64,000 nt of DNA from a virus (IMGVR_UViG_3300045970_000455:11866-75865), one strand, 5' to 3'; counted from the stretch's first letter, positions 1 to 47,000 are shown. A program made the numbers and translations. The notes: generated from the letters alone by a model not told the origin.

Positions 1-359
1 TTAGTTATGTCAACTGTTATCATAGGAATAAATCTTGTATTGTTCCATACATCTGTATGTAATATATTCAATACGCTGTTATGATATGTCACGGGGTAGT
101 CAAATGTAACAATATACCCTGCATACAACAATCCTGCCACTAATGTGTTCCAGTCATGTGCTGGATGAAAACTTCTATTTGCACATAGGTATATATGATT
201 TATGCTGTTATCTGTGGCACGAATATGTATTTCGATAAACGGTTGAAACTCTTGCACAAATAAGGTTTTCATCCCAAATGCCGGCGTCTTTTCCACCTCC
301 ATACCAATCATGTATGTTGTTCTTTTTTTGCCCATGAACTCTTCCCTGACTTCTTGCAT
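1..359 (-). CDS. Conserved phage protein of the TGT/glycosyltransferase cluster (3' end runs off the window)
   Basis: Not in the ORF track. Hand translation from ATG 359 is open to the window edge: MQEVREEFMGKKRTTYMIGMEVEKTPAFGMKTLFVQ...HIYLCANRSF...FIPMITV. I recognise the GxEVExTPAxGMKTLFV motif from phage genes neighbouring TGT-like genes. Confidence 0.7.
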   Translation of the reverse strand, partial: MQEVREEFMGKKRTTYMIGMEVEKTPAFGMKTLFVQEFQPFIEIHIRATDNSINHIYLCANRSFHPAHDWNTLVAGLLYAGYIVTFDYPVTYHNSVLNILHTDVWNNTRFIPMITVDIT

Positions 360-362
360 AGC

Positions 363-1199
363 TTATTCTGCCTTTAATAGATTGTGCATTGTTGTAAATG
401 TGTTGTTGATAAGATTTACCGGTTTAGATATATCATATGTATCATCTGCAAATTCTTTAATAATCATATCTATGTTATCAGATAGCACAGTAGATGTTGG
501 ATCAAGATTAAATACAACACCCAATCCTGTTGGAAATGTAGGTATGGTATAGAGTTTCAAGTCTGGCCTGTATTTTGCCAAGATAGGCATAATCTTCCAT
601 GTGTCGCCTGCCCAATATACTGTATTCCACGCTCTTGTTGCTGTAGCAGGAATAGCAGGAAATACATCATGCATAGCAATAACTGTATTCTTGCCAGATG
701 ATTTTTCTACGTTAATGAAATCTCGTAGAACTTGATCATAATAGTGTAACCCGTCAATAAACGAAAAGTTAATACACCCTGTCCCGAACTCATTTACCCC
801 TTCACAATCTTTTACATTATGATTAGAAAAGAAATCATCGCTTGTTGTTTTAAAAATCTTTGCCCATGCATCGAACCCATGCACTATCTTTGGAGCAGGA
901 TCGATACCAACCGAATGTGTATCTACGTTTGCAAACTGTAATGATTGCCCCGATTCAACACCGATTTCTAAATAGTTCTTAGGTTGTAGTGTTGTGTGAA
1001 ACCACTTTAACCATTCTAAATATGTAGGGCCAGGAAACTTATTAATAGTAAGTTCATTATGAATGCCACGCTGAACCTCCATTAGTTCTTTATTCTGCGG
1101 ATGCTTATCTAATAATGCGTCACACAATGTATCTGCACCAACAAAATCTCCCACTTTTATTTTATTTCTTATTACTATTAAGTTGTCTTCTATGTTCAT
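363..1199 (-). CDS. Class I SAM-dependent methyltransferase (Methyltransf_24-like) with short N-terminal helical extension
   Basis: Motifs YLEIGVESGQS, VGIDP, FIDGLHYYDQVLRDF, MHD. Confidence 0.85.
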   Translation of the reverse strand: MNIEDNLIVIRNKIKVGDFVGADTLCDALLDKHPQNKELMEVQRGIHNELTINKFPGPTYLEWLKWFHTTLQPKNYLEIGVESGQSLQFANVDTHSVGIDPAPKIVHGFDAWAKIFKTTSDDFFSNHNVKDCEGVNEFGTGCINFSFIDGLHYYDQVLRDFINVEKSSGKNTVIAMHDVFPAIPATATRAWNTVYWAGDTWKIMPILAKYRPDLKLYTIPTFPTGLGVVFNLDPTSTVLSDNIDMIIKEFADDTYDISKPVNLINNTFTTMHNLLKAE

Positions 1200-1207
1200 T
1201 TTATGCC

Positions 1208-1366
1208 TTATACTAATTCTTCTACTACGCCTAATATTTCTGCAACAACAAACATTGTTCCGGCAAAAAATAAGTTACCTACTGCAAGATTACAGCCTGC
1301 TATAATGCGAATAGCACTTTTCACCAAACTAATGCGTTGGTGTAGCTTTGGATCCGGTGTCTTCAT
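1208..1366 (-). CDS. Small membrane protein (52 aa)
   Basis: Likely start MKTPDPK, just after the glycosyltransferase stop; hydrophobic; ends AEILGVVEELV. Confidence 0.6.
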   Translation of the reverse strand: MKTPDPKLHQRISLVKSAIRIIAGCNLAVGNLFFAGTMFVVAEILGVVEELV

Positions 1367-1367
1367 T

Positions 1368-2546
1368 TCAATATTTTTCCTTTGATACATATTTTCTATA
1401 GTCGTTTGTGTTTCTTGCCCATTCTTCTCCAACGCCTTCAAACACATCAAGCGTACGGTCGATTGTGCCATTTTGCCAATCACTAACTGCACCTGTTTTA
1501 TATCTCGATGGATTAACAAACATTTTTTCTAATCTTTCTACCGCATCATCTATGCTCCACGGTATATACATATTATCTGCATTATTAGCAAATACCTCTG
1601 GAAAACTTCTATATGCTGGATATAATGTTAGCGTGCCCAATGCATCAGCTTCACTCACTGTGTTACTTACCCAATCTTGCAATGCACAGTTAAATAAAAC
1701 GGTACTGTCTGCAAGTAATGCATAGTAGTCATTCTTCTTTAATCCTGTATAAACCTTAAAGTTTGCAGAACCACTATTTTCTAAATACTTTGCAAAATCT
1801 GTGTTATTTTTGTTATTGCTCTTTAGTTTAGGATGCCCACTAAACACGGCAAACTCCACATCAGGTCTAATCTTGTTAAACTTTTGAGCAAGCTGCATAT
1901 AAAATTCTGGTTGCTTCTCATCGTCCCATCTTGCTGCAAAACCAACACGCTGTTCGCGTGATGTGATAGGTTTGAGATATGGTACGCGACTTATAACTTC
2001 TTCTTTACCGAACGGTAATCCAGTTACATAAATAGGTGCCTTAAATCCTGCAATCCGTAAATGCGATACCATTTCTTCGCTTGCTACAAGAATGCCGTCG
2101 ACAAAAGAATCAACCATTTGTTCGAAAGGTCGCATCCATCTAAACATTCCTTCGCGATTTACAAAGTCGTCGGGGTCTATACTCTGTGCAAGACACCTAA
2201 CATATACCTTTGGTTTGAACTTACGCGGAACTTGATCCATGATGTAAGGTAACGATTCCATTCCGGGTGTAAACATATCTTCGAAGAATACAACATCTTG
2301 ACTTGTTACCCTACCTTCTTTCATTAGTTCTATTAGATTTGCCATCTGTGTCATACTATAGTATGTCCTACCATGTGCATCTAATACACTGCCTGTAACA
2401 ATCTTTTTATCTGTGGTAAGTTCGGAACCTAACACAATCTGATAATCAACGCCTCTGCGCTTAAACACTCGTTCGTTCCAGTCGCCGAGTTGTAAAGAAT
2501 AACGAGCCTCATATTGCTCCAATCCCATATAAAATAGTTTTCTCAT
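1368..2546 (-). CDS. GT-B fold glycosyltransferase (group 1-like)
   Basis: FAARWDDEKQPEF, ALQDWVSNTVSEADALG, YRSFPEV match the GT-B nucleotide-sugar-binding half. Confidence 0.8.
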   Translation of the reverse strand: MRKLFYMGLEQYEARYSLQLGDWNERVFKRRGVDYQIVLGSELTTDKKIVTGSVLDAHGRTYYSMTQMANLIELMKEGRVTSQDVVFFEDMFTPGMESLPYIMDQVPRKFKPKVYVRCLAQSIDPDDFVNREGMFRWMRPFEQMVDSFVDGILVASEEMVSHLRIAGFKAPIYVTGLPFGKEEVISRVPYLKPITSREQRVGFAARWDDEKQPEFYMQLAQKFNKIRPDVEFAVFSGHPKLKSNNKNNTDFAKYLENSGSANFKVYTGLKKNDYYALLADSTVLFNCALQDWVSNTVSEADALGTLTLYPAYRSFPEVFANNADNMYIPWSIDDAVERLEKMFVNPSRYKTGAVSDWQNGTIDRTLDVFEGVGEEWARNTNDYRKYVSKEKY

Positions 2547-2556
2547 AGTTTCTTTC

Positions 2557-2787
2557 TTAAAGGTGTTTTATGACATACACTAATGCGTCTTCACTGTTTA
2601 TTATAGCAGTTTCTTTAGAATATACACGATATTCATCTATATATTTAATCGCAGGTACAGGAACAACATGTATCATTTTATTATTAAGTTTTATTACCTT
2701 GCATATTTTGATGGTGTTGTGACGTGCTGCTACCACATACATACCTACACGAACTTGCACACCTAATATATCAAAATGTTCAGTCAT
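2557..2787 (-). CDS. Small SH3/KOW-like hypothetical protein
   Basis: DILGxxVRVGMYVV pattern; ATG 2787 overlaps the upstream stop. Confidence 0.6.
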   Translation of the reverse strand: MTEHFDILGVQVRVGMYVVAARHNTIKICKVIKLNNKMIHVVPVPAIKYIDEYRVYSKETAIINSEDALVYVIKHL

Positions 2788-2962
2788 TTTCTTTGTGCCA
2801 GCGTTCATCGTCATATTGCCTGTTTAACTCTTTTAATATTTCGGAGTCGATTACTTCCCTTATATACCGAGCCATCTGTAGTGCCATGTCTCGTTCCATG
2901 CGTTCTACTTTTGTATATTTTAGTATATCTATGACCTTATCTTTTAGCTGATCATCTGTCAT
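2780..2962 (-). CDS. Small protein resembling a helix of gp23-type major capsid protein
   Basis: Fills the operon gap with overlaps at both ends; contains MERDMALQMARYIREVIDSEILKELN. Confidence 0.55.
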   Translation of the reverse strand: MTDDQLKDKVIDILKYTKVERMERDMALQMARYIREVIDSEILKELNRQYDDERWHKEND

Positions 2963-3251
2963 AATCAACAACACGGATCAGTTTATCGCCCATCCAGTGA
3001 GAGCAAGATTCGTCGGCATCATGTTCAAAATCCTTAAGCATCTTCGCGAATTTTTTCTTTGAGATCTTTCTACCATCAATGATAGTTTCTCCTAAGAATT
3101 TTTGCGATACTTCCTCGAATGCATCTGCATCGTTACCTGAATCAATCATTGTCACTTCATCATATGCATGTTCAAGCGCATCGGCTTCAATAACATAACG
3201 TCGACGAAAGGTAGAAATAGTGTCTACCATGTATAGTTTCTTTTTAGTCAT
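2952..3251 (-). CDS. Conserved phage hypothetical protein
   Basis: Likely start MTKKKLYMVDTISTFRRRYVIEA, with ATGA overlap. Confidence 0.65.
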   Translation of the reverse strand: MTKKKLYMVDTISTFRRRYVIEADALEHAYDEVTMIDSGNDADAFEEVSQKFLGETIIDGRKISKKKFAKMLKDFEHDADESCSHWMGDKLIRVVDYDR

Positions 3252-3664
3252 TTTATACCCTTTAATATATCTACCACTTTCTGTTCTTCTGCCCATACTG
3301 CTTCTTGTTTGATTCTTGCATTTATATACTCTTTAATCTGGTGCCTTGAGCTCCATATTTTCTCTTCATAGAATGCTAACCCGTTGCAAGGACAGTCTAT
3401 AACAATAGCAACATCTCCAACATCTTTAGCCATTACACAATCTACAGCATAATGTATAACTACACCATCTGGATATTTTTTCTGTTTTTCCAGTGCATCC
3501 TCAATATAGCAATCATATTCTTCCGCATCGTGATCGATAATCTCTGCGTCAGGACAATAATGCTCCCTACCACAGAAGCCGCATGTCATGTAATGTGACC
3601 CGCCGCCCGATAGTGCATCGAGAAACATGTGAGATGGTTTTGTGGGAGATGTATAGAAACTCAT
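3248..3664 (-). CDS. Cys-rich hypothetical protein, possibly Zn-binding
   Basis: CGFCGREHYC and DCPCN; ATGA overlaps. Confidence 0.65.
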   Translation of the reverse strand: MSFYTSPTKPSHMFLDALSGGGSHYMTCGFCGREHYCPDAEIIDHDAEEYDCYIEDALEKQKKYPDGVVIHYAVDCVMAKDVGDVAIVIDCPCNGLAFYEEKIWSSRHQIKEYINARIKQEAVWAEEQKVVDILKGIK

Positions 3665-3867
3665 CTTTTTCCTTTCTTATGCCGTATTCTTGTATTACCC
3701 TTTTTACCCGGGGAATCTGCGAACTCGGGACTACCACCGACCATAATAGAGTTTGCCAATATTAGTCCATTTAACAGGCCATGCATATATCCCTTTTCGT
3801 TTGAATCTCGCTGAATAGCTACAAGTTTTGACAATGTAGATAATCTATGCTGAAGATCATGTTGCAT
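3661..3867 (-). CDS. Hypothetical protein
   Basis: Operon-coupled; YMHGLLNGLILA motif. Confidence 0.6.
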   Translation of the reverse strand: MQHDLQHRLSTLSKLVAIQRDSNEKGYMHGLLNGLILANSIMVGGSPEFADSPGKKGNTRIRHKKGKR

Positions 3868-5428
3868 CGTCGGTATTATCTTCCTGAGCTAATGTATCAT
3901 TATCTTCCCCTGCCATTTCCTCCACTGTCGGAAATTCAGTTGTAGAGTTAGGATCGTCATCACCAAACAATGTGCTAAATGTTGTCTTTGTCTTCTTGTT
4001 GCCAAAGCTAACATAGTTAAGAAACTGTAAGTTATCCTCCAACATTTCATACGGATGTTCATTAGCAGGATCAAACAACTTTTCAATAAAATCATTAAAG
4101 TAGATAATAGAGTTGGGAACAAAGTCACTCTTATTTGCTTTCTTATCCCGCATCTTATACCAGTCTTCAAAGTTTACATCTTTTCTTGTGGCGTAGTCTA
4201 TATCTGCAAGCCTGTTTATTTCTTGTATAGCTTGTATGTGATTATATACATTGTGTGCCATAACAAGTGCGTAACTTGTTGTATCCCAACTTGTCTTACC
4301 TATCTTGTTATGCTTATTAGCATCATTAGGTCCCATAACGCACACATCGCTTGTGTATAAACGTTCCATAATAGGGCCTTGGAATGGCATCGCTAACTTC
4401 TGTTCTTTTAAACCTTTGTCATCAATACCGCTTCCCATAGCATACGTCAGCCGATCTGGATTAAAGTAGTTATAGTTGTAAGATAGTGCATATCCGCCTG
4501 CTGCAACAAAAGGTGATGCAGCGTCAAAGCTAATATTAATGTTAGGATTGTGATGTTTCTTTAACACACGTTCTATAGATGTTAAATAGCACGCCCAGTC
4601 TAATCTTCCAATACCCAAAAAGTGTATCCAGTCCTTGCCTTCTAATAGACCATCGTCGCGTAGGTTAAGCAATCTCTCTAAAGATGTTTTCATGTTTTGC
4701 ATATTAACACCGGCAAATGCCCATCCTTCGAATGTTCTATCTCTGGTATATCCCATTGCTTCAACTATATCAGGCTGGCTGAATACCTTTACAGAATCAT
4801 ACCATTCTTTAGAGTTTTTATTATCGCTTCCGGACAACACATTAAGAAACTTAGTCGCGCCGGGCACTCTATGCTTCATAAAATAGTGAAGATTATGTTC
4901 TGTAACATCTAAACAATCTGCAAAACTTGTCAGCCCTGTTTTCTCACTTAATGGAGGTAATGCTGCAAACGCAGGAATATCCAATGTCATAGACCAATCG
5001 GCTGTATGCTCTAAGAATCTAAGAATTTCTTCTCTTAACTTATCACCGCCCGGTCCTTTAACTGTTGTCCAGTCTAACTTGATAACACCTGTAGCAATCT
5101 GAAACCCACCAGAGTCGCCAATGAGTATAGTATTTTCTCTATCACGCTTATGGATCATAGGTTCTCTATCATCACATTTATTTAACTTACGTTCTGCGTG
5201 ACCTGCGCTATACAGTCCATACCCGTATGTATAGTAACTTTTTTCTGCGTCGAAAAAGTTAAGTCCTTGTATACCAAATTCAAACTTTTCAGGAACACGT
5301 TCCTTAGGAATAAAAGTTGGATCAAGCAAATCCTTTCCAAGATGTGTTGTATAGAATCCGGAAATCGCAGGTAGGTATTTAGCCCAGCGACCTTCTTTAT
5401 GTCGCTCTGTAAAGTTTACTATATTCAT
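3857..5428 (-). CDS. tRNA-guanine transglycosylase-fold enzyme, probably DpdA-like DNA 7-deazaguanine transglycosylase
   Basis: GDSGGFQ, MTLD, HFLG, SFDAAS and late HN motifs of the TGT fold; no CxCxxC Zn site; directly downstream of clamp and DNA polymerase. Confidence 0.75.
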   Translation of the reverse strand: MNIVNFTERHKEGRWAKYLPAISGFYTTHLGKDLLDPTFIPKERVPEKFEFGIQGLNFFDAEKSYYTYGYGLYSAGHAERKLNKCDDREPMIHKRDRENTILIGDSGGFQIATGVIKLDWTTVKGPGGDKLREEILRFLEHTADWSMTLDIPAFAALPPLSEKTGLTSFADCLDVTEHNLHYFMKHRVPGATKFLNVLSGSDNKNSKEWYDSVKVFSQPDIVEAMGYTRDRTFEGWAFAGVNMQNMKTSLERLLNLRDDGLLEGKDWIHFLGIGRLDWACYLTSIERVLKKHHNPNINISFDAASPFVAAGGYALSYNYNYFNPDRLTYAMGSGIDDKGLKEQKLAMPFQGPIMERLYTSDVCVMGPNDANKHNKIGKTSWDTTSYALVMAHNVYNHIQAIQEINRLADIDYATRKDVNFEDWYKMRDKKANKSDFVPNSIIYFNDFIEKLFDPANEHPYEMLEDNLQFLNYVSFGNKKTKTTFSTLFGDDDPNSTTEFPTVEEMAGEDNDTLAQEDNTDDAT

Positions 5429-5439
5429 TTAATACCTTA

Positions 5440-6177
5440 TTAGGATTTTCCAGCAGGGAGAATAAAACTGTATTTCCCAATACCGGAATCGATGTCGATT
5501 TTTAATGCGCCCATATCAGAAAAACTCATTGTAGCAGAAGCTGCACTATCTGTTAGTTTCAGGATGCTAATAACTTGCGTCAGTGGATATGTCCATTGAT
5601 GTTTCAATGAACCAGTTACATTTGTCTCAAATGGAACACTTGTTCTATCTGTTGGTCCTGTGCCAATACTGAATTTAAGTGTGCCCTTATCAACAATAAC
5701 AATAAACCGTTTTTCAACTCCACCAACAACACCACAGTTATCGCTAAGTAACGCGATAGATTTCTTCGACGGTGTTATAACAATATCCCATGTTGCACCC
5801 TTAAATGGTGGAACCTTAACTTGTTCGTTAATCATCGTTTCCGACATAAATCTATAGTTAGATACAAAGCCTTCTTTATTATCAAACACAACTTCAACAG
5901 GTACCGTTACTCCGTTACGAACTTCTGTTGCAATGCTAACAGAAGATCCTTCGTGCATACCAATGAATCCTTTTAGGATAGCAAGCCGCGATAGGCCAAT
6001 AGTGCTGTCAATACCTGCGATTGGTTGATTCATGCTGCCGTATATGATAACAGTGTTATCTACGTCTTTTGTTTCTAACTTGGCATCAGATGCCGTACCT
6101 ATTACCTTCACTGTCTCGATAAATCCGAGAGAACCGGTATGTTTAATGATATCTTTAAACTGATCAATGCTTGACAT
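5440..6177 (-). CDS. Putative DNA polymerase sliding clamp (gp45/PCNA-like)
   Basis: 245 aa, alternating beta/alpha pattern, ends KYSFILPA, adjacent to PolB; clamp loader also in window. Confidence 0.7.
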   Translation of the reverse strand: MSSIDQFKDIIKHTGSLGFIETVKVIGTASDAKLETKDVDNTVIIYGSMNQPIAGIDSTIGLSRLAILKGFIGMHEGSSVSIATEVRNGVTVPVEVVFDNKEGFVSNYRFMSETMINEQVKVPPFKGATWDIVITPSKKSIALLSDNCGVVGGVEKRFIVIVDKGTLKFSIGTGPTDRTSVPFETNVTGSLKHQWTYPLTQVISILKLTDSAASATMSFSDMGALKIDIDSGIGKYSFILPAGKS

Positions 6178-6216
6178 TCTTATTCCTTTATTTTTAAAAT
6201 TGCTAACCTATCACAT

Positions 6217-6245
6217 AGTATACGACATTTTTTGCAAAATGTCAA
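6217..6245 (-). promoter_or_regulatory. Sigma70-type promoter for the clamp/TGT/GT operon
   Basis: TTGACA-17-TATACT on the minus strand; overlapped by inverted repeat GACATTTT-N4-AAAATGTC (6224-6243). Confidence 0.85.
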
Positions 6246-6250
6246 ACGTT

Positions 6251-9202
6251 TCAGATGCCTGTGAAGTCAAATAACGTAGTCAAATGCGCGTGTTGCTTTT
6301 GTGTCTTTGTAAGATCCCATTTAAGGCATCCTACCAAGTTTTCTACCTTTTTATCGACAATACCCTCTTCCATTCCTTCTGAATCAAATGGTAGAGATGT
6401 GAACCATTCTGGCAAATGATTTTCATCTACAGGATAGGCAATAGATGTCATTCTATTATCTACAGTATCTTTCAGTTTGCACACAACAATCTTTTGACCG
6501 TCCACAATCCTCATTGCATGTTGGTCCATGTTTATTTCTTTTAATCTGTTCCATGCAAGACTCGCTGTAACATGACCCGGTACATGAAGATTGCCGGATT
6601 TCACACCTTTTAGTTTCTTAAGTGCTGCATCCTCTAATACTTCTTTGTAATGCGTTAGTCTATTAACTGCGCGTGGTGTACCTTGTTGCCAGGGTTTCAT
6701 ATCTTCGAACTTTTCTTTGAACTTCCTAACTTTGTCAAGCACATATGTTTCGCCCTTGTCTGTCAATGTATCCATTAATATTTCTGATAAGAATTCCTGC
6801 ACATACTTTGGCGTATCTGCTCGTTTTAAGTCAAGCCCCATAGCCTTAACTTTCCCGGGCTTATTTCCAACGTCAAGTCTTATACCATCCTTTTCATACA
6901 TCAACACAGCATATCGTTTCTTAACAATATATAATCCGCTTTCTGCTACCACTTCGCGTGAGCTTGCTATAACGCCCGTTGATCTCTTAATAGGTACATT
7001 TAACAATCCTAATAAGAACTCCGGGAATGTTGCAGATACCATCTTAGCAAGATTATTATATAACTCCACTACGCTTTCTTTTGTCCATACAACTGTGCCC
7101 TGCTTAATCTCATCCTTTAATATAGGATATGCTGAAAAATAAGTAGAGTCAGTATCACCATAAACAATAGAATCTCCATAATGATCATATATACCTGTTA
7201 TTACCTCGTTGGTTTTAGCAGCCATATGCTTTGTAATGGTTCTACCTGTAAGAGTGGTAGATTGTCCAAGACGTTGATCAAAGAATCTACTGCCAGCGTT
7301 TAATAACGCGCCGTATGCTGAGTTCAAGTTAATCTTTTTAACAAGCTGCCTCTTATCCCAAAAACCAACTACACGTTTCAATGATGGTTGGTCTCTGCTT
7401 ATTGCCTTTCCATCCTTCACTGTTAAGCTGTGTTGATTCATATACTGGATTACACGCTTCTTATGTCCTTCCGATATTAGTTCTTGCAATTTCTTCGGTT
7501 TATAAGACTCGGTCTCTATGTAGGGATTAGCCTTAATCTCTATGTCACTAATATCGCCTAAATCAAACAGATTTACAGGTACTTTAACGCCTTCTATCTT
7601 AGGGTTGTCTTCTAAAGACTGATAGTTAGTCATTATGCCTTGTAATACCTTACGCTCGTTATACCATCTTGTAAGCAGTGATGGAATAACCCCGTTTATG
7701 TCTGTTCTAAAGATTGTACCGTTGGCGCTTATACACCAAGTATTTTGATTACTGAAAATAAGCTCTCTTAACTCTGCACCAGTGATTTCGAATGAATCAC
7801 CGTTTTCCATATCCAATATTAGTTTGTTACCAATATCGCCGGAATAGAAATCTTCCATCTCTAACACATTAAATCTATCGTTCCACCACGATGCAAAGGT
7901 ATATTTGTTTCCTTTGCTTTCATGTGCAGCAATAGCTTCGTTTGTTCTATCAAGCCTGATCTGCCCGACTATTGTTTCGGGACTCATGTTGAGTGTTCTA
8001 ATAACCGATGGATACAAAGACTTCATGTCGGTTGATCCTAACCACTTATGAAGTCCTCTCTTTGGTGTTGCTACCCAACCACCCGCTGCTCTAACTTCTT
8101 TCTCGTTAGCACTGTGCTTCTTATCAGGGCATACCATATTGTTATGGTGTGCTTCCATCAACACATTTTGATCAGTTACAGCAACCGCACCCATTGTAGT
8201 TTGTATTAAAACACAACTTTGGTGAGCGATAGAGTTTGCTAAATCAATAAACTGTAGTTTCTTATCGAGCCTATCTAATAGACGTGTATCTTGTATGTTA
8301 TATTCTAAAAACTTTTTAAAGTCGTCATTATACAACTCGTCTAATGTGCCTTCATATTGTAGTTTTGTCTCACCCAGCTCTACGTCTGCAATAGCGTTAA
8401 GTGCGTAACTATGTCGTTCTTCGTAGTTATACTTCTTGTATAGTTGCATATAGTCGATTGATATTCTACCAATCAGGTCATATGTTTTTGCTTCTTGTCC
8501 GCCACGGTCAAATGTGCGTTCCTTTGGCATTTGTTCCCATAGGCACAATCTACGCGCTTCATTCTTACCAAGCACTTTCTTAATGCGATTTACCGTGTAT
8601 GGAATATCATATGCTTCGCTGTTCCAGCCGCTTAACACATCTGCGTCTTCGATAATATCTAAAAACGCCCTAAGCATGTCTGCCTCTTCTTTAAAGAGAG
8701 TGACATTGCCCACTTCTTCTGCTATTGCTTGCGCTTCTTCCCATGTTAGTGTTTCAGGTGGCACAGCAAAGCACACAATTTCGTCTATCCATTGCAGATG
8801 AACAGAAATTGCTGTTATGTAGTTGTTTGCCTCTGATGCTTCCGACCAGCCGAGTTCTTTATCAAAGCTGGTTTCAATATCAAAGAATGCTACATTAAGT
8901 GACGGTACTTCACCCGCCGCATAGTTATGCTCTAAACATCTAAAAACAGGATCAACATCACTTTCCCATTTTTTAGAGTTGCTTGATAGTGTTTTTAATA
9001 TTTTCTGTTTTTCTATAAACGTATTCGGTGTTACTTTCTTTACCGAATCGCCATATATGGATTTAAACTGACCTCTTGGATCTGTTAAGTAAAAATGATA
9101 ATCCGGCTGAAATTCTTTATATATCCGCTTACCGTTAACTCTTTCTACTATCTTTATTGTTTCGGAGTCGCCACCGCGCTTAAAAAATGAATCAATATAC
9201 AA
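6251..9202 (-). CDS. Family B DNA polymerase with 3'-5' exonuclease
   Basis: DIET, GWNSEAYD, YNIQD, DMKSLYPS, KINLNSAYG, YGDTDS. Probable TTG start at 9202 after the upstream stop, with GGTAGGGG RBS. Confidence 0.97.
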   Translation of the reverse strand: MYIDSFFKRGGDSETIKIVERVNGKRIYKEFQPDYHFYLTDPRGQFKSIYGDSVKKVTPNTFIEKQKILKTLSSNSKKWESDVDPVFRCLEHNYAAGEVPSLNVAFFDIETSFDKELGWSEASEANNYITAISVHLQWIDEIVCFAVPPETLTWEEAQAIAEEVGNVTLFKEEADMLRAFLDIIEDADVLSGWNSEAYDIPYTVNRIKKVLGKNEARRLCLWEQMPKERTFDRGGQEAKTYDLIGRISIDYMQLYKKYNYEERHSYALNAIADVELGETKLQYEGTLDELYNDDFKKFLEYNIQDTRLLDRLDKKLQFIDLANSIAHQSCVLIQTTMGAVAVTDQNVLMEAHHNNMVCPDKKHSANEKEVRAAGGWVATPKRGLHKWLGSTDMKSLYPSVIRTLNMSPETIVGQIRLDRTNEAIAAHESKGNKYTFASWWNDRFNVLEMEDFYSGDIGNKLILDMENGDSFEITGAELRELIFSNQNTWCISANGTIFRTDINGVIPSLLTRWYNERKVLQGIMTNYQSLEDNPKIEGVKVPVNLFDLGDISDIEIKANPYIETESYKPKKLQELISEGHKKRVIQYMNQHSLTVKDGKAISRDQPSLKRVVGFWDKRQLVKKINLNSAYGALLNAGSRFFDQRLGQSTTLTGRTITKHMAAKTNEVITGIYDHYGDSIVYGDTDSTYFSAYPILKDEIKQGTVVWTKESVVELYNNLAKMVSATFPEFLLGLLNVPIKRSTGVIASSREVVAESGLYIVKKRYAVLMYEKDGIRLDVGNKPGKVKAMGLDLKRADTPKYVQEFLSEILMDTLTDKGETYVLDKVRKFKEKFEDMKPWQQGTPRAVNRLTHYKEVLEDAALKKLKGVKSGNLHVPGHVTASLAWNRLKEINMDQHAMRIVDGQKIVVCKLKDTVDNRMTSIAYPVDENHLPEWFTSLPFDSEGMEEGIVDKKVENLVGCLKWDLTKTQKQHAHLTTLFDFTGI

Positions 9203-9203
9203 A

Positions 9204-9461
9204 TCAGATGCCCCTACCAATCTGCCCTAATAGATCTTCGACTTCTTCAAAATCTGCTCTTACGTTATTTAGATTTGCCTTATGTGCAATCTTTATCACT
9301 TTATTGAGTTGAGCAGGTTTCACTTCCAACTCTTCGGCTATAGCCTTAACTGTTTCGCTAAGACCTACTTTTAGGTCTTCACATTCCTGTAATACCTGCA
9401 CTCCGTCTGTTACCAGTTGTTTCAATCGTGACAAATTTGCGTCTGATAGTTTCGATGACAT
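9204..9461 (-). CDS. dsDNA-binding protein (T4 DsbA / GapR-like)
   Basis: LSETVKAIAEELEVKPAQLNKVIKIAHK coiled-coil pattern; AGGAGAG RBS before ATG 9461. Confidence 0.65.
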   Translation of the reverse strand: MSSKLSDANLSRLKQLVTDGVQVLQECEDLKVGLSETVKAIAEELEVKPAQLNKVIKIAHKANLNNVRADFEEVEDLLGQIGRGI

Positions 9462-9504
9462 AACTCTCCTTGATTTGTTGTGTGCTATACTTAGCAATAA
9501 AGTA

Positions 9505-9533
9505 AGTATAACTGTAATATTTTAGAAAGTCAA
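9505..9533 (-). promoter_or_regulatory. Sigma70-type promoter for dsbA-like gene and PolB
   Basis: TTGACT-17-TATACT. Confidence 0.8.
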
Positions 9534-9535
9534 TA

Positions 9536-9865
9536 TTATACAGCGAAACTCTGTCCGCAACCACATGTTGAGCTGCTGTTTGGGTTTTGTATTACAAACT
9601 GAGAACTCATTAGTTCTTCTTTATAGCTTACAGTAGATCCTACCAAATATTGATAGCTCATGGCATCCACAATAATAGTGACTCCGTCTTTTACTATTTC
9701 TGTATCATCCTCGGCTACTTCTTTATCAAAAGTAAAACCATAAGAAAATCCCTGGCATCCACCACCTTGCACAAATATCCTAAGTTTCTGTTCGGGGTCG
9801 CCGTCATCTATTATGAGGTCACGTATTTTGTTTATTGCCGAATCTGCGAATACGATTGGTTCCAT
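9536..9865 (-). CDS. erpA: A-type Fe-S carrier ErpA/IscA
   Basis: [42 protein letters not shown]. Confidence 0.93.
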
Positions 9866-10239
9866 TAACGTGTTTTCCTATAATCTGCTATGGCTGCTTT
9901 AACAGCATCCTCTGCCAATATGCTACAATGTATTTTTACGGGTGGTAGGGCTAATTCTTCCGCTATTTCTGAATTTTTAATAGTAGCTGCTTGACCTACA
10001 GTCTTGCCTTTAACCCATTCTGTCACTAAACTGGATGAAGCAATCGCTGAACCACACCCATAGGCCTTGAACTTTGCATCAGTAATGATTTCATCTTCTA
10101 CCTTTATTTGTAGGCACAAAACATCTCCGCATGCCGGGCTCCCTACCATTCCTGTTCCTACAGTAGGATCTCCCTTTTCAAACTTTCCAACATTACGAGG
10201 ATTATTATAGTGATCCAACACTTTTTCGGAATATGCCAT
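9865..10239 (-). CDS. iscU: Fe-S scaffold IscU
   Basis: [42 protein letters not shown]. Confidence 0.97.
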
Positions 10240-10820
10240 TATAGCCTCCCGTAAGCATTACCTGTCAGTGGTTCGTTTGTTCCGTGATACGCTTTATCGT
10301 CATATCCGTGTATAGGAGATAATATACCTTCTCTTTCAGTCTTTGATTGTGTGTTATCTGTGAATCGATACATTTGGTCTGGCATAACACGCTTAAACCA
10401 TTCTGCTACCATAGGGCGCACATCACGGTTAGGTTCCGTGTCTTCCAATATACGCAACTCATCCGAGAATGCATCATCCTTGATAATATCTTGCAAGAAT
10501 ACTTCTGCAACACACGCCGGAATAGGTCTTGACATAATCTCTTCCACTAAGTCAAAATCTTCGTTTGATATAGGTAGCTTATGAATGGCTTCCATAACCT
10601 TTATTTCATTTATACTTTCTATTGTAGCTTTTAACTCTGTATAATCTTTACGCAGTTCTTTTTGTAAAAGCCCTTTTTTCGCTTTCGGAGTAGATGGGTC
10701 GCCAATCATATCTACATATTTGTCCATGCGTTGTTGTAAGGCGTTTAGGTTGGCTATCTTCTTTTTAGATAGACTTTTATCGTTCATCCCCTTCGGTAAT
10801 AATAGTTCTAAGATTTTCAT
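10239..10820 (-). CDS. Probable virion head-associated protein
   Basis: MKILELL start and charged composition like other MK(I/L)x(E/D) proteins here; in a late operon. Confidence 0.5.
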   Translation of the reverse strand: MKILELLLPKGMNDKSLSKKKIANLNALQQRMDKYVDMIGDPSTPKAKKGLLQKELRKDYTELKATIESINEIKVMEAIHKLPISNEDFDLVEEIMSRPIPACVAEVFLQDIIKDDAFSDELRILEDTEPNRDVRPMVAEWFKRVMPDQMYRFTDNTQSKTEREGILSPIHGYDDKAYHGTNEPLTGNAYGRL

Positions 10821-11278
10821 TATGAATACACTATCACAACAATACCACTACCACCGTTTCCACCCAGCGCTGATGCACCGCCCCAAATGTAACCGTTGCC
10901 GCCACCACCGCCACCTTGATTAGTTAAACCTGCTGCGCCAGGATTAGCAGCACCACTATTGCCCCCATCTCCGCCGCCTGTACCTGCTGTACCACCCAGG
11001 TGAAATCCATTATCGCCGGTACCGCCACCACCGCCACCGCAACCTGTAAAAATATATCCTACCGCAGTGGATAAAATAGACATTCCTGCTCCACCATTCT
11101 TGCCGCTACCAGCAGATACGGCGCCACCGCCCCCGCCACCGTATTGATTTTCTAAACCAAGACCGCCATCGTTACCTTGGCCTACGTAGCCATCACCGAC
11201 GGTGCCGCCATTAAAATAAGGTGTTCTGCCGCCACCACTACCGCCTGGTTTTCCGCTTATTCCTGTACCTGTTGTCAT
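10820..11278 (-). CDS. C-terminal half of a glycine-rich tail-associated domain
   Basis: GGSGGG, GQGNDGG, NQGGGGGG, terminal GGNGGSGIVVIVY; own GGAG RBS at 11285-11288. Confidence 0.8.
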   Translation of the reverse strand: MTTGTGISGKPGGSGGGRTPYFNGGTVGDGYVGQGNDGGLGLENQYGGGGGGAVSAGSGKNGGAGMSILSTAVGYIFTGCGGGGGGTGDNGFHLGGTAGTGGGDGGNSGAANPGAAGLTNQGGGGGGNGYIWGGASALGGNGGSGIVVIVYS

Positions 11279-11291
11279 TATTTACTCCGAA

Positions 11292-12284
11292 TTAGTTCAC
11301 TGTGTCGGGTTCTTTCTTAAGATTATGACTTAACAAACCATTGTTCACGTATGTGTGAGCGTCCTTGACGGTGATCTTGATTACTTCGCCACGATTGTAT
11401 TTTGAAACACTAACTACCGCATTCGGAACTGATGGTCCTATTAGCATATCACTTGGTTTGAGAAGCGACAGTTGAACCTGTGTACCATCAACCATGAACA
11501 TCGGATGATTGAACGATGCCGTTAGTGTCCTGCCGTTTTCCATTGTCAGCACCCAACGATCGTTGACATCTGGTGTAACTGCCTCAACCTCGAACGAACC
11601 CCATACACCTGTTGTTTCGTGTCTTGTCCACACATATTGACCTGCTTGAAGCATGTCTGCTCTAACCCATGACTGATTGGCAAGAAGAATCATTTCCCAT
11701 GGCGCTGGGCAACCGCCACTGCCGCCACCCCCGCCACCCCCGAGGCCGCCACCAGATACCACTGTTGCTACATCGCCACCGCCACCCCCGCCGCCATATG
11801 CTATAGCGGTACTGTTAAACGAGGATGATACACCATCTGCCCCCTGAACGTTGAGCCCTGATGCTGCGCCGCCTGCGCCTACGACAATCGGTATTACGGC
11901 CCCGGGCGTAACGCTTAGTGTTGTATGAACATAACCACCTGCTCCACCTCCACCTCCACCTTCTAGTGTACCTATACTGCCACCTGATCCACCGCCACCT
12001 ACTGTTAAAACTTCAACTGATGTAACCCCTGCAGGAACAGTCCAACTTTGGCTAGATGTAAATGTCTGGCTAAAATATTTAGATGCTCCGTGGAAGCTAT
12101 CAAGACTAAGTGCTCCGCTTGTTGGTACAAAAGTGCTTGCACCGTGTGGTGATCCTTTTATAAACGACTTCACGTATGTCCCATTACGATACAGTTGTGA
12201 CAAAGAAACGGGTGTGCCAGGTACTGAAAATTCAGTGCCTATAGCAGATAATGATATTGAGTTTGGATATACCGGTAATGTCAT
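11292..12284 (-). CDS. Tail-fibre-tip-like protein: N-terminal half of Gly-rich domain plus C-terminal Hint domain
   Basis: gp38-adhesin-like start (ISLSAIGTEF..SLSQLYR), TFTSSQSWTVPAGVTSVEVLTVGGGG, then GG-CPAPW...TASFNHP...HTYVNNGLLSHN. Confidence 0.85.
   Translation of the reverse strand: MTLPVYPNSISLSAIGTEFSVPGTPVSLSQLYRNGTYVKSFIKGSPHGASTFVPTSGALSLDSFHGASKYFSQTFTSSQSWTVPAGVTSVEVLTVGGGGSGGSIGTLEGGGGGGAGGYVHTTLSVTPGAVIPIVVGAGGAASGLNVQGADGVSSSFNSTAIAYGGGGGGGDVATVVSGGGLGGGGGGGSGGCPAPWEMILLANQSWVRADMLQAGQYVWTRHETTGVWGSFEVEAVTPDVNDRWVLTMENGRTLTASFNHPMFMVDGTQVQLSLLKPSDMLIGPSVPNAVVSVSKYNRGEVIKITVKDAHTYVNNGLLSHNLKKEPDTVN
11322..11711 (-). other. Hint (intein-like/BIL) autoprocessing domain, 130 aa
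   Basis: Cys1, block-B His (NHP), terminal His-Asn followed by Leu; no endonuclease. Confidence 0.85.
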
Positions 12285-20060: not shown

Positions 20061-22274
20061 TTAGTTTAGCATATCTATGTTTTCTTGTATGCGTTCAGAT
20101 ACGATAACAGATATATCATCGTCTACAACGGACACAACAACATGGCCGCCGTCTTTTAGTTTACCGAACAAGATTTCTTTCGATAGCGGTTTCTTGAGTT
20201 TTGTTTCAGCAAGCCTCTCAAACGGTCTTGCACCCATTAGTGGATCTAGTCCGTTTGTTGCTAACCAATCACGCGCCTCAGATGTTACGTTAATAGTGAT
20301 GTTTCTAGGTTCCAACATCAGCTCTGTCTTTTCTATCTCTGAGTTAACAATAAGCCGCATTTCAGGAAGGCCTAACTTGTTAAACTTAATAGTGGCATCT
20401 AACCTATTTCTAAACTCGGGTGTGAACAGTCTCTTTAACTCTACATCCACCGCACCACTGTTGTCTTGGTTACCAAAGCCTATGCGCTTTCTTTCTGCAT
20501 CTGCTGCACCTGCGTTGGCTGACATAATCAATATAACATTTGAAAAGTCTACCGTTTTACCTTTGCTTGACGTTAGCCTGCCCGCATCCATAACCTGCAA
20601 TAATACAGAGAATATATCGGGTGATGCTTTTTCTATTTCATCTAACAACAATACGCAGTTAGGATGAGCATCAATTTCTGCAATAAGTTGCCCTTCTCCC
20701 ATCTTACCTTCGCCGTGGCCTACATAACCGGGAGGCGCACCTATTAGTTTGGAAATAGTGTGTTTTTCCATGTATTCCGACATGTCAAACCGCACTAGCT
20801 TAACACCGAGCAGTTCTGCCAACTTCTGTGCTGCAAAAGTTTTACCGCTACCTGTTGGTCCCGTAAATAAGAAACTACCAATCGGCTTGACAGGGTTTCG
20901 TAAACCTGCTTTTGCCATGTAGATTGCTTCAGTTAATGCTTCGATTGCCGCATCCTGACCATACACCTTGTTCTTAAGTTTTGGTTCTAAGTTAGCAAGT
21001 TCGTCATTTGCCTTTATGTCAATCATATCTTCGGGCATGTGAGCAATCTTTGCTGCTTGCTTAAGAATATGCTGTAATGTTACGGTAGGAGATTCTTCTA
21101 ACTTAGCAACTGCACCAGCAGCATCCATAATATCGATTGCCTTATCTGGGAAGAACTTAGTTTTCAGATACCTATCTGCTAAATCTACACAAAGATCGGT
21201 GGTGCCTACGTCATACGAAATCTTGTGAAACTTCTCATAGTGTTTCTGTAATCCGCTCAGGATAAGTTTAGTTTCTGCAGCGGTGGGTTGATTAATGTCA
21301 TACTTCTGGAATCTACGCAGCAGAGCCTTGTCCTTTTCAAAGTGTTCATGAAACTCGTCGTACGTGGTTGCACCAACGCACATTAACTGCCCCTTGGCAA
21401 GCATAGGCTTTAGTAAGTTGCCGGCATCCATTGTGCCGCCACTACCTGCACCAGCGCCCAATATCATGTGAATCTCGTCGATAAACATAATACAGTTGCC
21501 TAGCTTTTTAACTTCTTCGAGCACACCTTTAAGTCGCTCTTCGAAATCACCTCTAAACTTAGTCCCTGCCAAAAGTGCGCCAATGTCTAAACTGTACACC
21601 ACTTTATCGTGCAATGCTTTTGGCACTTCTTTATTGACAATCTTTAATGCCAATCCTTCTGCAAGTGCTGTCTTACCTACACCTGGTTCACCCACATACA
21701 CAACATTGTTTTTCTTGCGTCTTGCTAAAATCTCAATCGTATCTGCTACTTCTTTTGCCCTGCCAATCACGGGATCGATTGTTCCGTCTGTAGCTTCTTT
21801 ATTTAAGTTCAGTGCGTATAGTGATAGCGGGCTTTCGTTTGCTGCTGGCTTGTCGCCTGTCTTTCTTAGATGTGCAATGATCTTTTCTCTTGTTACGCCG
21901 TGCTTTGCAAGAAAGTAATGAGAGTGACTTGTTTCTTCACTCAGAATGCTGAGTAAAACTGCTTCACTTGTTAGTTCTGTTCTGCCGCTAAACATTAACT
22001 GAGTTAATGCCCTTTGCATTGTGCGCTGAACAACACTTGTTCTTTTTGCAGGAACATCTTTCAGTGTGTCTGGCTTCTTAAGTGCAGGGTCACCTAAGAA
22101 TGTAATGACATCTGTTTTGATTTTTGCGGGCTGGGAACCAACTGCTACGATCAGTTCGTTTACATCTTTTTCGTGTAACAATGATAACAGAATGTGTTCC
22201 ACTGTTATATATTCGTGGTTGTTATCGTTAGCAATACCGACTGCACGCGAAAACATCTTATCTACTTTACTCAT
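20061..22274 (-). CDS. clpA: ATP-dependent Clp protease ATPase ClpA
   Basis: Clp N-domain, two AAA+ modules (GEPGVGKT, GPTGSGKT), KFRGDFEERL, GAPPGYVG, IGF loop; no M-domain. Confidence 0.95.
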   Translation of the reverse strand: MSKVDKMFSRAVGIANDNNHEYITVEHILLSLLHEKDVNELIVAVGSQPAKIKTDVITFLGDPALKKPDTLKDVPAKRTSVVQRTMQRALTQLMFSGRTELTSEAVLLSILSEETSHSHYFLAKHGVTREKIIAHLRKTGDKPAANESPLSLYALNLNKEATDGTIDPVIGRAKEVADTIEILARRKKNNVVYVGEPGVGKTALAEGLALKIVNKEVPKALHDKVVYSLDIGALLAGTKFRGDFEERLKGVLEEVKKLGNCIMFIDEIHMILGAGAGSGGTMDAGNLLKPMLAKGQLMCVGATTYDEFHEHFEKDKALLRRFQKYDINQPTAAETKLILSGLQKHYEKFHKISYDVGTTDLCVDLADRYLKTKFFPDKAIDIMDAAGAVAKLEESPTVTLQHILKQAAKIAHMPEDMIDIKANDELANLEPKLKNKVYGQDAAIEALTEAIYMAKAGLRNPVKPIGSFLFTGPTGSGKTFAAQKLAELLGVKLVRFDMSEYMEKHTISKLIGAPPGYVGHGEGKMGEGQLIAEIDAHPNCVLLLDEIEKASPDIFSVLLQVMDAGRLTSSKGKTVDFSNVILIMSANAGAADAERKRIGFGNQDNSGAVDVELKRLFTPEFRNRLDATIKFNKLGLPEMRLIVNSEIEKTELMLEPRNITINVTSEARDWLATNGLDPLMGARPFERLAETKLKKPLSKEILFGKLKDGGHVVVSVVDDDISVIVSERIQENIDMLN

Positions 22275-44086: not shown

Positions 44087-47000
44087 TGCCAAGTATTGTT
44101 CTATTTGGGGCGGCTGCTGCAAGAGCGTGGGGTAATATAGTAATAGCTCAAGCTGCTGTAGATTCTGATCCATACTTTTCTTCTGTCTCTTTATTGTTAC
44201 ATGCAGATGGCACAAATATGTCAACCGCATTTGCTGATAGCAGTGTTTATGCAAACACGATTACATCCGTAAATGATGCCTTTATAACAACTACAGGCAC
44301 TAAATTCGGCGCTGGCGCAGCGTCTATAAATAATGGCCAATACCTCACGGTACCTGATAGTAGTTTGTTTGATTTAGGCGGAACAGATTTCACAATAGAA
44401 TTTTGGGCATACCATTCTGCCATTGTAACACAACAACAGTTAATAACAAAAAGAGCAAGTAGTTCAGTATTTGGCCCATTCTCAATATTCAATGATCTTT
44501 CTGGAAAGCCGGGGCTATTAGTAAGCACCGATGGTACAACATGGGGAGTGTCTATTATTGCTGCTGCTGCTATTACTATAAATACCTGGCATCATTGGGC
44601 GGCCACGAGAACTGGAAATATTTACAGATTGTTTGTTGATGGGTCGCAGGTAGGAACAGCCACGGTGGCAGGATCATTATTTGTGAATACATCACCGGTG
44701 GCGATAGGATGTAACATAGGCGGATTATTACCATTTGTCGGAAAACTCGATGATATAAGAATAACCAAAGGTATTTCTCGATATACGGCAAACTTTTCTG
44801 TGCCAACTGCTGCATTTCCAAATACTTTACCTGCTGACCCATATTACTCTTCTGTTGCATTATGGTTAAGAGCAAACGGTACCAACGCATCGACTACATT
44901 TATAGATAGTAGTCCTGCGCCGAAAACTATAACAGCATATGGCTCGTCACAAATAAGCACAGCAAGATATGTGACTGGAACATCATCATTATATTTAAAT
45001 GGTACAGCAGATCCAGTGATATTATTAATGCATATGGATACAACGACATTATCTGACGAGAAAGGATTGACTGTAACTATCGGTGGTTCTGCTGCCAGAA
45101 GTGCAACCCAAAGTAAATTCGGCAGCTATTCTGCATATATACCGGGTTCGGGTAGTTATTTGGCGCTACCTCTTGGTGGCAGGTGGTCTACAGGTACAGG
45201 AAACTTTACAATAGATTTTTGGATATATCCTACTGTGATAGGTGGTGGTACAATAAAGAGATATTTTTCTATGGAACAAGCCACAGAATCTATTGTTATA
45301 CGGGAAGAATCAAATGTAATAAAGGCATATTTTAGATTTGGATCGGCGACGGTAGTCAGCTTAGTCGGATCAGCGGCACCAACATTAAACACATGGCAGC
45401 ATATAGCATTAGTAAGAAACGGAAGCACGTTTACATTATATAAAAACGGTACAAGTATCGGAACATTAACAAATGCAGGGGCTATAAATGCATCTGCAAC
45501 GATACCTACCATAGGATCGGCTGCTGAATATTTTACCGGTTACATAGATGAATTTAGATTTACTAAAACCGCTGAATGGACAACAACATTTACTCCACCG
45601 GTGGCGGCATATACAACAACAGATACATCAACATATTTACAAGCAGCAGCAGACACTGCATTTAATCTTACAAGCGATTTTACGATAGAATCATGGGTTA
45701 ACTTCACTGTATTACCGACAAGTGGAATATATGTGGGAGTGATTACAAAAAACTGGGATCAGCCTGACTTAAATAATAACTTCTTCTTTGGTATAGTAAA
45801 TACAGCAGGCGTATATTATGTTCAACTGTACTATGGAACAATAAATGGTCAAACAACTACTGTGGCACAGCAAGCATTTCACACATTACCATTAAATAGT
45901 TGGGTGCATATAGCAGCAGTTAAATACAATGGAATAATAACAATATACGCAAATGGTGCTGGCGGCACGCAACTAAGTGCTCCTGCATTCTTCGAAACTA
46001 CGGCACCGATCAATATAGGTGTAGCGAACCCTACTAGTTCTTCCGGTTATACTTGGTTAATGCAAGGAGCATATTTAGATGATATGAAAATAACTGCTGC
46101 GGCAAGATACACATCAGACTTCAATATGTATAATACAGTTGCACTACCATATGATCCATACTTTAATAATGTTACGCTGATGTTACACGGCGAAGGTGTG
46201 TTAAATGGTACTGTGTTTCTCGACTCGAGTCCTACCATAAAAACAGTTACACCTACTGGCACTACCCTGACAACAACTGCACAATATAAATATGGTAGTT
46301 CATCTATACAATTTAATGGTGGAAATTCATACCAATCTATAGCAAACAACGCAGGATTTACGTTTGGTAGCGGCGATTTTACAGTAGAGTTATTTATTAG
46401 GGTGAGTGCTTCTACTGGATCACCCCAACAGATATTAGGTGTATGGCATAACAGTTTAGGATGGGCGTGGCAGATTAATGTAGATACCAACCGCTATGTA
46501 CTTTTTACTTGTAATACAAACATTTCTGCGGCATCGGCGGCACCTATATCTTACGGGGTGTGGTATCATATAGCAGCAGTAAGATCAAGCGGAAGTATAA
46601 TGTTATTTATTGATGGTGTGCTGCAATCGACTACTGCATTCACAGCAAGTGTTACCGCATCTACCTCACCGTTGGTAATCGGTTCTGTTTCTGGACCCAT
46701 CACCTGGTTTTATGCTGGATGGATGGATGAGATAAGAATAACAAAAGGTGTAGCAAGATATACATCGTCGTTTGTACCGCCTACAGGTGCATTTATTGAT
46801 GCAGGACCGCCCGATACAGTAGATCCATACTTTTCTTCTGTGTCTCTATTATTGCATGCCGATGGTTCGGAAGGTTCTTCCACATTCACTGATTCAAGTG
46901 CTATACCGAAAGTGGTAACACAGCGCCCGTCAGCATTAGGATTAGGAACAGGCGTATCAGTATCGGGCGTGGCTGCTCGTGATATGATTTTTGCAAACGG

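Follow-up and report, generated by a model that had tools for sequence, protein, structure and literature searches.

We analysed a 64,000-nucleotide stretch of viral DNA (IMGVR_UViG_3300045970_000455:11866-75865, hereafter the window), which opens with a minus-strand run of genes encoding a sliding clamp, an enzyme with a predicted tRNA-guanine transglycosylase (TGT) fold, four small open reading frames (ORFs), a glycosyltransferase (GT), a methyltransferase (MTase) and a conserved partner protein. The best explanation of this run as a whole, which we hold with moderate confidence, is that it is the start of an operon for 7-deazaguanine DNA modification that does without QueC, and that the linked GT decorates the modified base. 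The window spans positions 11866-75865 of a linear IMG/VR record 75.9 kb long, whose completeness CheckV puts at ∼20%, and the record is a piece of an uncultured, PA5oct-like freshwater jumbo phage of roughly 300–400 kb. A word index of the window gave matches in pond and wetland metagenomes and listed no RNA holder for the stretch. Because the minus-strand operon runs past the left edge of the window, we also examined the 11.9 kb on that side (L001).

The enzyme on which this reading turns is a 523-amino-acid (aa) protein for which sequence searches of Pfam, NCBIfam, PHROGs, PADLOC and the PDB returned nothing usable. An AlphaFold (AF2) model built from a diverse 55-member family alignment was of high quality, with a predicted local distance difference test score (pLDDT) of 91 and a predicted template modelling score (pTM) of 0.89, and in Foldseek its best-ranked PDB matches were all TGTs (E 3e-7, probability 1.0). 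VIA-align superposed the model on TGTs at Z 18–19 over ∼305 residues with a root-mean-square deviation of 4.4–4.6. Across the 55 sequences no substitution occurs at S74, D105, S106, G108, P152, H269, G272 or D302, and 54 of them have D150. The family profile places the motifs (G)DSGGFQ, MTLD, NVLQG and GWAFAG on D102, D156, Q203 and G230 of the Zymomonas mobilis TGT, such that D105 aligns with D102 and D150 with D156, in an alignment that reaches only E 1.4; the invariant D302, which lies in the sequence SFDAASP, would pair with the nucleophile D280 if the order of motifs is a guide. The zinc site of TGTs (CxCxxC...H) is absent: the protein has four cysteines (85, 172, 280 and 363), and the family is without a conserved cysteine cluster. 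A C-terminal extension of ∼130 aa completes the protein, its last ∼40 residues being predicted to be disordered. Because the model matches TGTs at such Z scores, DSGGFQ is retained and the aspartates are invariant, we regard the protein as a TGT-fold enzyme whose TGT-type (beta/alpha)8 barrel is predicted by modelling, in accordance with the fold that the original prediction had assigned to it. The family is large, with 780 representative clusters (50% identity) at E 1e-3 or better and at least 600 matching stretches in IMG/VR.

DpdA enzymes exchange guanine in phage DNA for 7-deazaguanines, and the type to which the 523-aa family comes closest is DpdA3. In phage phiST, all guanine is replaced by plain 2′-deoxy-7-deazaguanosine (dDG) through a short DpdA3 and DpdL, without a GT (Cui, Hutinet et al., NAR 2023, PMC10516641). 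Profile comparison of the family with phiST DpdA3 (CGPG_00065) by hhalign gave a probability of 77% and E 2e-5 over only 85 columns. With the family hidden Markov model (HMM), phiST DpdA3 came first among the ORFs of phiST and phage 9g, but only at E 0.016, and a 424-aa protein of the Acidovorax phage ACP17 was matched at 3e-10. The family lies far from the DpdA1 type (hhalign probability 0.4% against 9g DpdA1), no DUF6610 signal of the DpdA4 type was seen in it, and the family HMM detected no relative in Campylobacter phage CP220. The 523-aa protein thus appears, from sequence comparison, to be a candidate member of the DpdA3 group in a long, zinc-less form.

Searches with the canonical domain would not have revealed this family. 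PF01702 does not match the 523-aa protein and matches four of the 55 family members, at best with E 0.0045, and genome searches with PF01702 of the fragment, of the Pseudomonas phage PA5oct and of relatives came back empty. These empty searches carry no weight because the same search misses the validated DpdA1 of phage 9g, a warning that applies to PF01702-based genome searches as such. When the 9g DpdA1 protein itself was used as the query, with a positive control that worked, neither PA5oct nor the complete relatives yielded a DpdA1-type gene. The authors of the PA5oct study name no transglycosylase (PMC12191111), and the obvious candidate for this missing enzyme is the 523-aa family.

Further genes of the pathway lie past the window's left edge, where the same operon continues, 2–3 kb downstream, with a DpdL homologue and a candidate QueE. 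The 114-aa DpdL homologue is 39% identical to phiST DpdL (CGPG_00067; E 8e-18, 106 aa) and 50% identical to ACP17 ASD50405 (E 1e-41). DpdL is a QueD-like protein predicted to decarboxylate 7-carboxy-7-deazaguanine (CDG), an activity that is itself only predicted (PMC10516641). The candidate QueE, a radical S-adenosylmethionine (SAM) protein, gives E values of 4e-14 to 4e-9 with five NCBIfam models for QueE, with scores far below their curated cut-offs (52.6 bits vs 206), and is 47% identical to the annotated QueE of phage BUCT-ZZ01 and 31% identical to that of PA5oct. A search of the 75.9-kb fragment for FolE, QueD, QueC, a GalE-type epimerase and a phosphoribosyltransferase (PRTase) gave none of them, a result that is uninformative for a fragment covering ∼20% of its genome. 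We surveyed five large relatives, three of them complete with terminal repeats, and found FolE in all five, QueD above cut-off in three and QueC in none; in the complete relatives, FolE and QueD are encoded away from the operon. It had been proposed that folE, queD, queE and queC be sought past the window edge, and preQ0 had been named as an example of the inserted base; the first three genes turned up in the operon or in the relatives, and QueC did not. Since no QueC was found in the fragment or in the five large relatives, the donor base is more likely CDG or 7-deazaguanine than preQ0. We consider it highly probable that the operon serves 7-deazaguanine DNA modification of the QueC-less DpdL/DpdA3 type, and not of the preQ0 type. 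The virion DNA of PA5oct, to which the source phage is similar, resists restriction enzymes with G-containing sites, from which its authors infer a modified guanine, naming QueE and PTPS and no transglycosylase (PMC12191111).

The second element of the preferred reading is the GT. The window protein itself scores E 4.9e-4 against Glycos_transf_1 (PF00534), at 20.1 bits against a cut-off of 26.4, while 14 of 20 homologues match this domain (best E 8.9e-7) and precomputed PF00534 assignments exist for several cluster relatives. The signature of a nucleotide-sugar-binding C-terminal domain is kept. At least 7949 proteins score with the family, and a cultured example, BUCT-ZZ01 UTS52032, is 59% identical to the window GT and adjoins DpdL-like and DpdA-like genes. 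Linkage was counted from both sides. Among 47 non-redundant DpdA-like loci with at least 5 kb of downstream sequence, DpdL was present in 44, a relative of the partner protein p246 (see below) in 43, a window-type GT in 36 and QueE in 34. Starting instead from 57 non-redundant GT loci with enough upstream sequence, a DpdA-like gene was found in 56 and DpdL in all 57, within 1 kb in 32 of them. In loci without a window-type GT, a divergent gene of 355–373 aa occupies the same place, and one such gene, as well as the PA5oct homologue, matches Glycos_transf_1 weakly. The trio of DpdA-like, GT and DpdL genes also occurs in the cultured phages PA5oct, ACP17 and BUCT-ZZ01 in different gene orders, which provides independent support for the linkage of the GT. 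The co-occurrence of the GT with the DpdA-like clade that the original prediction expected is therefore borne out, and the GT is probably a working member of the deazaguanine pathway. In a single scanned locus (L007:12571-14330), a GFO/IDH/MocA oxidoreductase and a protein with an ADH_N domain, probably sugar-tailoring accessories, precede the divergent GT-like gene.

Taken in order, the proposed steps are as follows. FolE, QueD and QueE would make CDG, and the predicted decarboxylase DpdL would yield 7-deazaguanine from it. The TGT-fold enzyme would then swap guanine in the phage DNA for the deazapurine by means of two invariant aspartates, as proposed for DpdA3. The remaining steps follow gene linkage: the GT would add a sugar to the deazapurine, either as the free base or in DNA; the Methyltransf_24 enzyme would methylate the product, most simply on a sugar hydroxyl; p169/p246 would be a further component of the pathway; and the likely benefit would be to shield phage DNA from restriction and from other defences that target DNA. 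We put forward a sugar-bearing deazapurine in DNA as a tentative identity for the product, with somewhat less than even confidence, and regard its further methylation in the window genome as doubtful. The original prediction had also placed the synthesis of the modification at the replication fork, a detail that goes back to gene neighbourhood only and that we do not retain.

Several points weigh against this scheme. FolE and QueD are not on the 75.9-kb fragment. From sequence comparison, the link of the 523-aa family to DpdA3 is weak, the GT-B membership of the window protein itself falls below the Pfam cut-off, and the GT profile has no significant solved relative by sequence in the PDB. The co-occurrence counts come mostly from related phages with conserved synteny and are not independent events. 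C7 of unsubstituted 7-deazaguanine bears neither a hydroxyl nor an amine that a classical sugar transfer could use, the chemistry is known for no GT-bearing member of the cluster, and, because phiST makes 100% dDG without a GT, a GT is not required for deazaguanine DNA as such.

The last of these points, together with the lack of an obvious acceptor group on 7-deazaguanine, speaks for an explanation in which the operon makes plain dDG or its 7-carboxy counterpart (dCDG), as in phiST, and in which the GT, the MTase and p169/p246 act on something else, such as a protein of the virion, a glycan of the host envelope or a different nucleotide. The sheer size of the GT family agrees with this, and annotations are loose here, as seen from the PA5oct clamp homologue, which was annotated as structural from mass spectrometry. 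We nevertheless consider this explanation unlikely: in four phage lineages whose gene orders otherwise differ, the GT remains a neighbour of both DpdL and the DpdA-like gene, the variable enzymes that surround it (oxidoreductases, MTase) are of sugar-tailoring or small-molecule type, and the cluster lies among early replication genes rather than structural ones.

The GT-like and p246-like proteins could alternatively be needed to make or insert the deazapurine, either as partners of the long-form enzyme or as handlers of an activated intermediate, so that the final base would be dDG without a sugar. Expression of dpdA and dpdL of phiST and of ACP17 gave no dDG in Escherichia coli, and the authors asked about missing enzymes (PMC10516641). 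We link this failed test, which used only those two genes, to the fact that the DpdA-like gene of ACP17 is flanked exactly by p246-like and GT-like genes. Moreover, the four long forms examined (416–540 aa) all come with a GT and the 259-aa phiST form comes without one, in a comparison of five genomes only. Yet phiST, which lacks a GT, likewise gave no dDG when its two genes were expressed in E. coli, the signature of nucleotide-sugar binding is retained in the GT, and in other lineages the divergent GT comes with oxidoreductases of sugar-nucleotide type. We consider this explanation slightly less likely than a plain dDG or dCDG system.

Within the preferred reading of a decorated base, one could speculate as to how a sugar might be attached where there is no classical acceptor. 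Because the GT is so consistently linked to DpdL, and on grounds of general chemistry, the GT might form a C–C bond, attaching the sugar at the electron-rich C7 after decarboxylation by DpdL and so producing a C-glycosylated purine in DNA, with the MTase O-methylating the sugar. We consider this improbable, and equally so its corollary that the p246-like protein and the long transglycosylase are adaptations for handling a bulky base.

Two further explanations are very improbable. The fold and catalytic motifs of the 523-aa protein are those of enzymes that act on tRNA, and it could modify phage or host tRNA and not DNA; against this, the 64-kb window has no tRNA gene, the zinc site is absent, the TGT-fold gene follows polB and the clamp in 78 of 80 loci, DpdL-type systems yield dDG in DNA (PMC10516641) and PA5oct DNA resists restriction enzymes with G-containing sites (PMC12191111). 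Entry of the modified base as a nucleotide through the phage polymerase before replication, with the TGT-fold enzyme serving only salvage or proofreading, would suit the purine PRTase inside the BUCT-ZZ01 cluster, the annotation of a PRTase and a MazG-like pyrophosphatase in phiST and the 100% replacement reached by DpdA3-type phages (PMC10516641), but no PRTase was found on the window's 75.9-kb fragment, no member of the cluster is better conserved than the TGT-fold gene, whose product retains the catalytic aspartates, and the authors describing DpdA3 argue for post-replicative insertion (PMC10516641).

The MTase follows a different distribution from the GT. It matches PF13578 at E 3.7e-9 with 37.8 bits, above the cut-off of 26.3, which agrees with the SAM methyltransferase first proposed; PDB profile matches to class I MTases (BamL, CCoAOMT) are weak (E 0.03–0.5). 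None of the 80 nearest DpdA-like loci has the MTase, so the proposed co-occurrence does not hold there. In IMG/VR, in contrast, we found 14 MTase relatives, and the 11 with at least 50% identity are all inside the same cluster in another sublineage, where the DpdA-like gene lies on one side of them and the p169-like gene on the other, followed by DpdL and the GT; in one very short locus among these, the MTase match adjoins the p169-like gene. Three relatives at 31% identity are located elsewhere. In the window genome the MTase and the extra p169 copy lie between the GT and p246, a place where the closest relatives have nothing. The MTase is therefore a cluster-specific but optional, lineage-specific accessory.

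The partner protein is present in tandem, since p246 (L001:10964-11704) is a paralogue of p169, which is a diverged extra copy of this conserved protein. Both retain all 10 invariant residues of a 39-sequence family alignment. The family is nearly as faithful to the DpdA-like loci as DpdL and extends to ACP17 (HMM A3, 5e-29). An AF2 model of the p246-like protein reached pLDDT 90 and gave no clear fold match, Foldseek returning E 0.03 at best and VIA a best Z of 7.1 (STAS domains) and Z 6 for QueE half-barrels; leads from Atlas features to STT3/PglB were not trusted. In a tree of the family p169 forms a long branch, so the tree gives no answer as to whether p169 and the MTase arrived together. 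p169/p246 is thus an alpha/beta protein of unknown function that is tied to the pathway.

The coordinates of these and the adjoining features are collected in Table 1. In operon order, the minus strand carries polB, the clamp, the 523-aa TGT-fold enzyme, the four small ORFs, the GT-B enzyme, the MTase, p169, p246, the DpdL homologue, two genes of unknown function, QueE, another unknown and RNase H/FEN. Every element that the original prediction listed lies on this strand, and the intergenic gaps of the cluster in the window range from –49 to +168 nt.

Table 1. Features of the gene cluster at the start of the window (positions counted from the first base of the window)
Feature	Position	Strand	Basis or context
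Partner protein p169, 169 aa (119 aa within the window)	1..359 (full ORF L001:11715-12224)	-	Begins at 359 and crosses the window's left edge
Class I SAM-dependent MTase (Methyltransf_24), 278 aa	363..1199	-	PF13578
Putative GT-B (GT4-like) glycosyltransferase, 392 aa	1368..2546	-	Glycos_transf_1 (PF00534), homologues
Small ORF, 85 aa	2557..2814	-	19/80 related loci
Small ORF, 114 aa	2952..3296	-	17/80 related loci, identity up to 77%
Small Cys-rich ORF, 138 aa	3248..3664	-	17/80 related loci
Small ORF, 68 aa	3661..3867	-	Directly after the TGT-fold gene in 24/80 related loci
Predicted zinc-less long-form TGT-fold enzyme, DpdA3-like candidate DNA guanine transglycosylase, 523 aa	3857..5428	-	AlphaFold model and motifs
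Predicted PCNA-like sliding clamp, 245 aa	5440..6177	-	Atlas structure model
Sigma70-like site TTGACA-17-TATACT, 11/12 consensus	6217..6245 (6245->6217)	-	Between polB and the clamp gene
Family B DNA polymerase (polB), context	6251..9220	-	PF00136 E 7e-26, PF03104 E 1e-20, phrog_262 E 1e-190

The clamp was recognized from structure. It has no Pfam match and no PDB sequence match, and its PHROG, phrog_12062 (E 4e-33), is of unknown function. The Atlas model (pTM 0.90) aligns with PCNA_N/PCNA_C clusters at template modelling (TM) scores of 0.75–0.78 over 225–227 residues, and with a viral 'PCNA N-terminal domain' cluster at TM 0.94, and the protein is 44% identical to PA5oct EST35_0314. It is accordingly modelled as a two-domain PCNA-type clamp, as first proposed. 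Upstream of it, the sigma70 promoter that had been placed ahead of the operon does match the consensus, and shares the top score within positions 1–9600 with one plus-strand site. However, since this region has fewer sigma70-like sites than its shuffles (18 vs 33), the site is a consensus match only. Of the 80 related loci, 78 have polB ahead of the cluster. This gene is a single intact 989-aa ORF in the window, and in PA5oct it is interrupted by a homing-endonuclease gene (L002:1581-6807).

Among the small ORFs, the 138-aa one has several cysteine pairs (CGFCG...C...C, DCPCNG) and is perhaps a zinc-binding module. A radical-SAM protein of 293 aa (L001:1643-2524, minus strand), encoded downstream of the operon and ∼9.3 kb beyond the left edge of the window, resembles RlmN/Cfr C-methyltransferases (TIGR00048 E 2e-17, PF04055 E 2.5e-9) and was not found in the flanks of the 80 related loci. 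Elsewhere in the window are genes for tail fibres, baseplate proteins and a Lon-like protease. The Lon-like ATP-dependent protease (737 aa, 20061-22274, minus strand) matches phrog_4871 at E 4e-243, and two giant neighbouring proteins of 1432 and 766 aa (44086-50684, plus strand) are built of repeated baseplate-wedge-like modules from the same PHROG families. In positions 10001-12000 local G+C content peaks at 0.47, compared with ∼0.38 around it, and the GC skew there is strongly negative. No tRNA genes were found in the 64-kb window.

To our knowledge, eight 7-deazaguanine derivatives occur in phage DNA, none of them carrying a sugar, and all the glycosylated DNA bases we know of are pyrimidines. 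What emerges here is a sugar transferase closely linked with the deazaguanine genes of environmental phages that form a very large group, with lineage-specific tailoring enzymes beside it. A decorated deazapurine, if it exists, would constitute a DNA base of a new class and would matter for restriction and glycosylase-based defences, for sequencing artefacts and for DNA-labelling enzymes. It may also explain the failure of dpdA and dpdL alone in E. coli, and would give a name to the missing transglycosylase of PA5oct. As PA5oct, ACP17 and BUCT-ZZ01 are in culture, the question is open to testing. The window further shows that the MTase recurs as an accessory, that p169/p246 is duplicated in tandem and that p246-like and GT-like genes flank the DpdA-like gene of ACP17.

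Among known systems, the alpha- and beta-glucosyltransferases of phage T4 act on DNA containing 5-hydroxymethylcytosine and are thus phage GT-B enzymes that decorate an already modified base. They act on another base, whose acceptor hydroxyl has no evident counterpart on 7-deazaguanine, and the likeness is one of concept only. Literature searches on DpdA5 and on glycosylated or GT-linked deazaguanine turned up no account of a GT in a deazaguanine pathway or of a sugar-bearing deazaguanine in DNA. The Z. mobilis TGT and the DpdA1 of phage 9g share with the window enzyme the barrel fold, the DSGG(F/Y)Q motif and probably the aspartates, and phage 9g has the same order of polymerase, clamp and DpdA; unlike them, the window enzyme has no zinc site, no PF01702 match and the C-terminal extension of ∼130 aa.

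The closest characterized system is that of phiST, which, like the window phage, combines QueC-less FolE/QueD/QueE and DpdL with a very divergent TGT-fold transglycosylase beside polymerase genes (PMC10516641), and whose DpdA3 is the best, though weak, profile match of the 523-aa family. It differs in the length of the transglycosylase, which has 259 aa against 523 aa here and matches over only 85 columns, and in being without a GT, a Methyltransf_24 enzyme and a p246-like protein, all of which are present in the window operon. In BUCT-ZZ01, a T4-like Synechococcus cyanophage of 156 kb (Kyanoviridae), the GT that is 59% identical to that of the window adjoins DpdL-like and 416-aa DpdA-like genes, with FolE, QueD and QueE in the same run; neither an MTase nor a p246-like gene turned up in that region. 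The cluster includes a purine PRTase, annotated as xanthine-guanine phosphoribosyltransferase (L095:14430-14891), which hints that the free base may become a nucleotide in some lineages.

For ACP17 (KY979132), dpdA and dpdL were reported by Cui et al. (PMC10516641). Here p246-like, DpdA-like (424 aa), GT-like, DpdL and QueE genes form one run, which FolE and QueD adjoin. The 424-aa protein, DpdA-like by the family HMM, may correspond to the authors' dpdA, and its gene is flanked by the p246-like gene (HMM A3, E 5e-29) and a GT-like gene (HMM A2, E 2e-17) at L193:9138-11832. The GT-like proteins of ACP17 and PA5oct are only ∼22% identical to the window GT, and neither phage has the MTase; PA5oct, moreover, has no p246-like gene in the 17.5-kb region examined. 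PA5oct has the layout of the window, with polB, clamp, DpdA-like, GT-like, DpdL-like, QueE and RNase H genes in the same order and a DpdA-like protein that is 52% identical to the 523-aa protein of the window.

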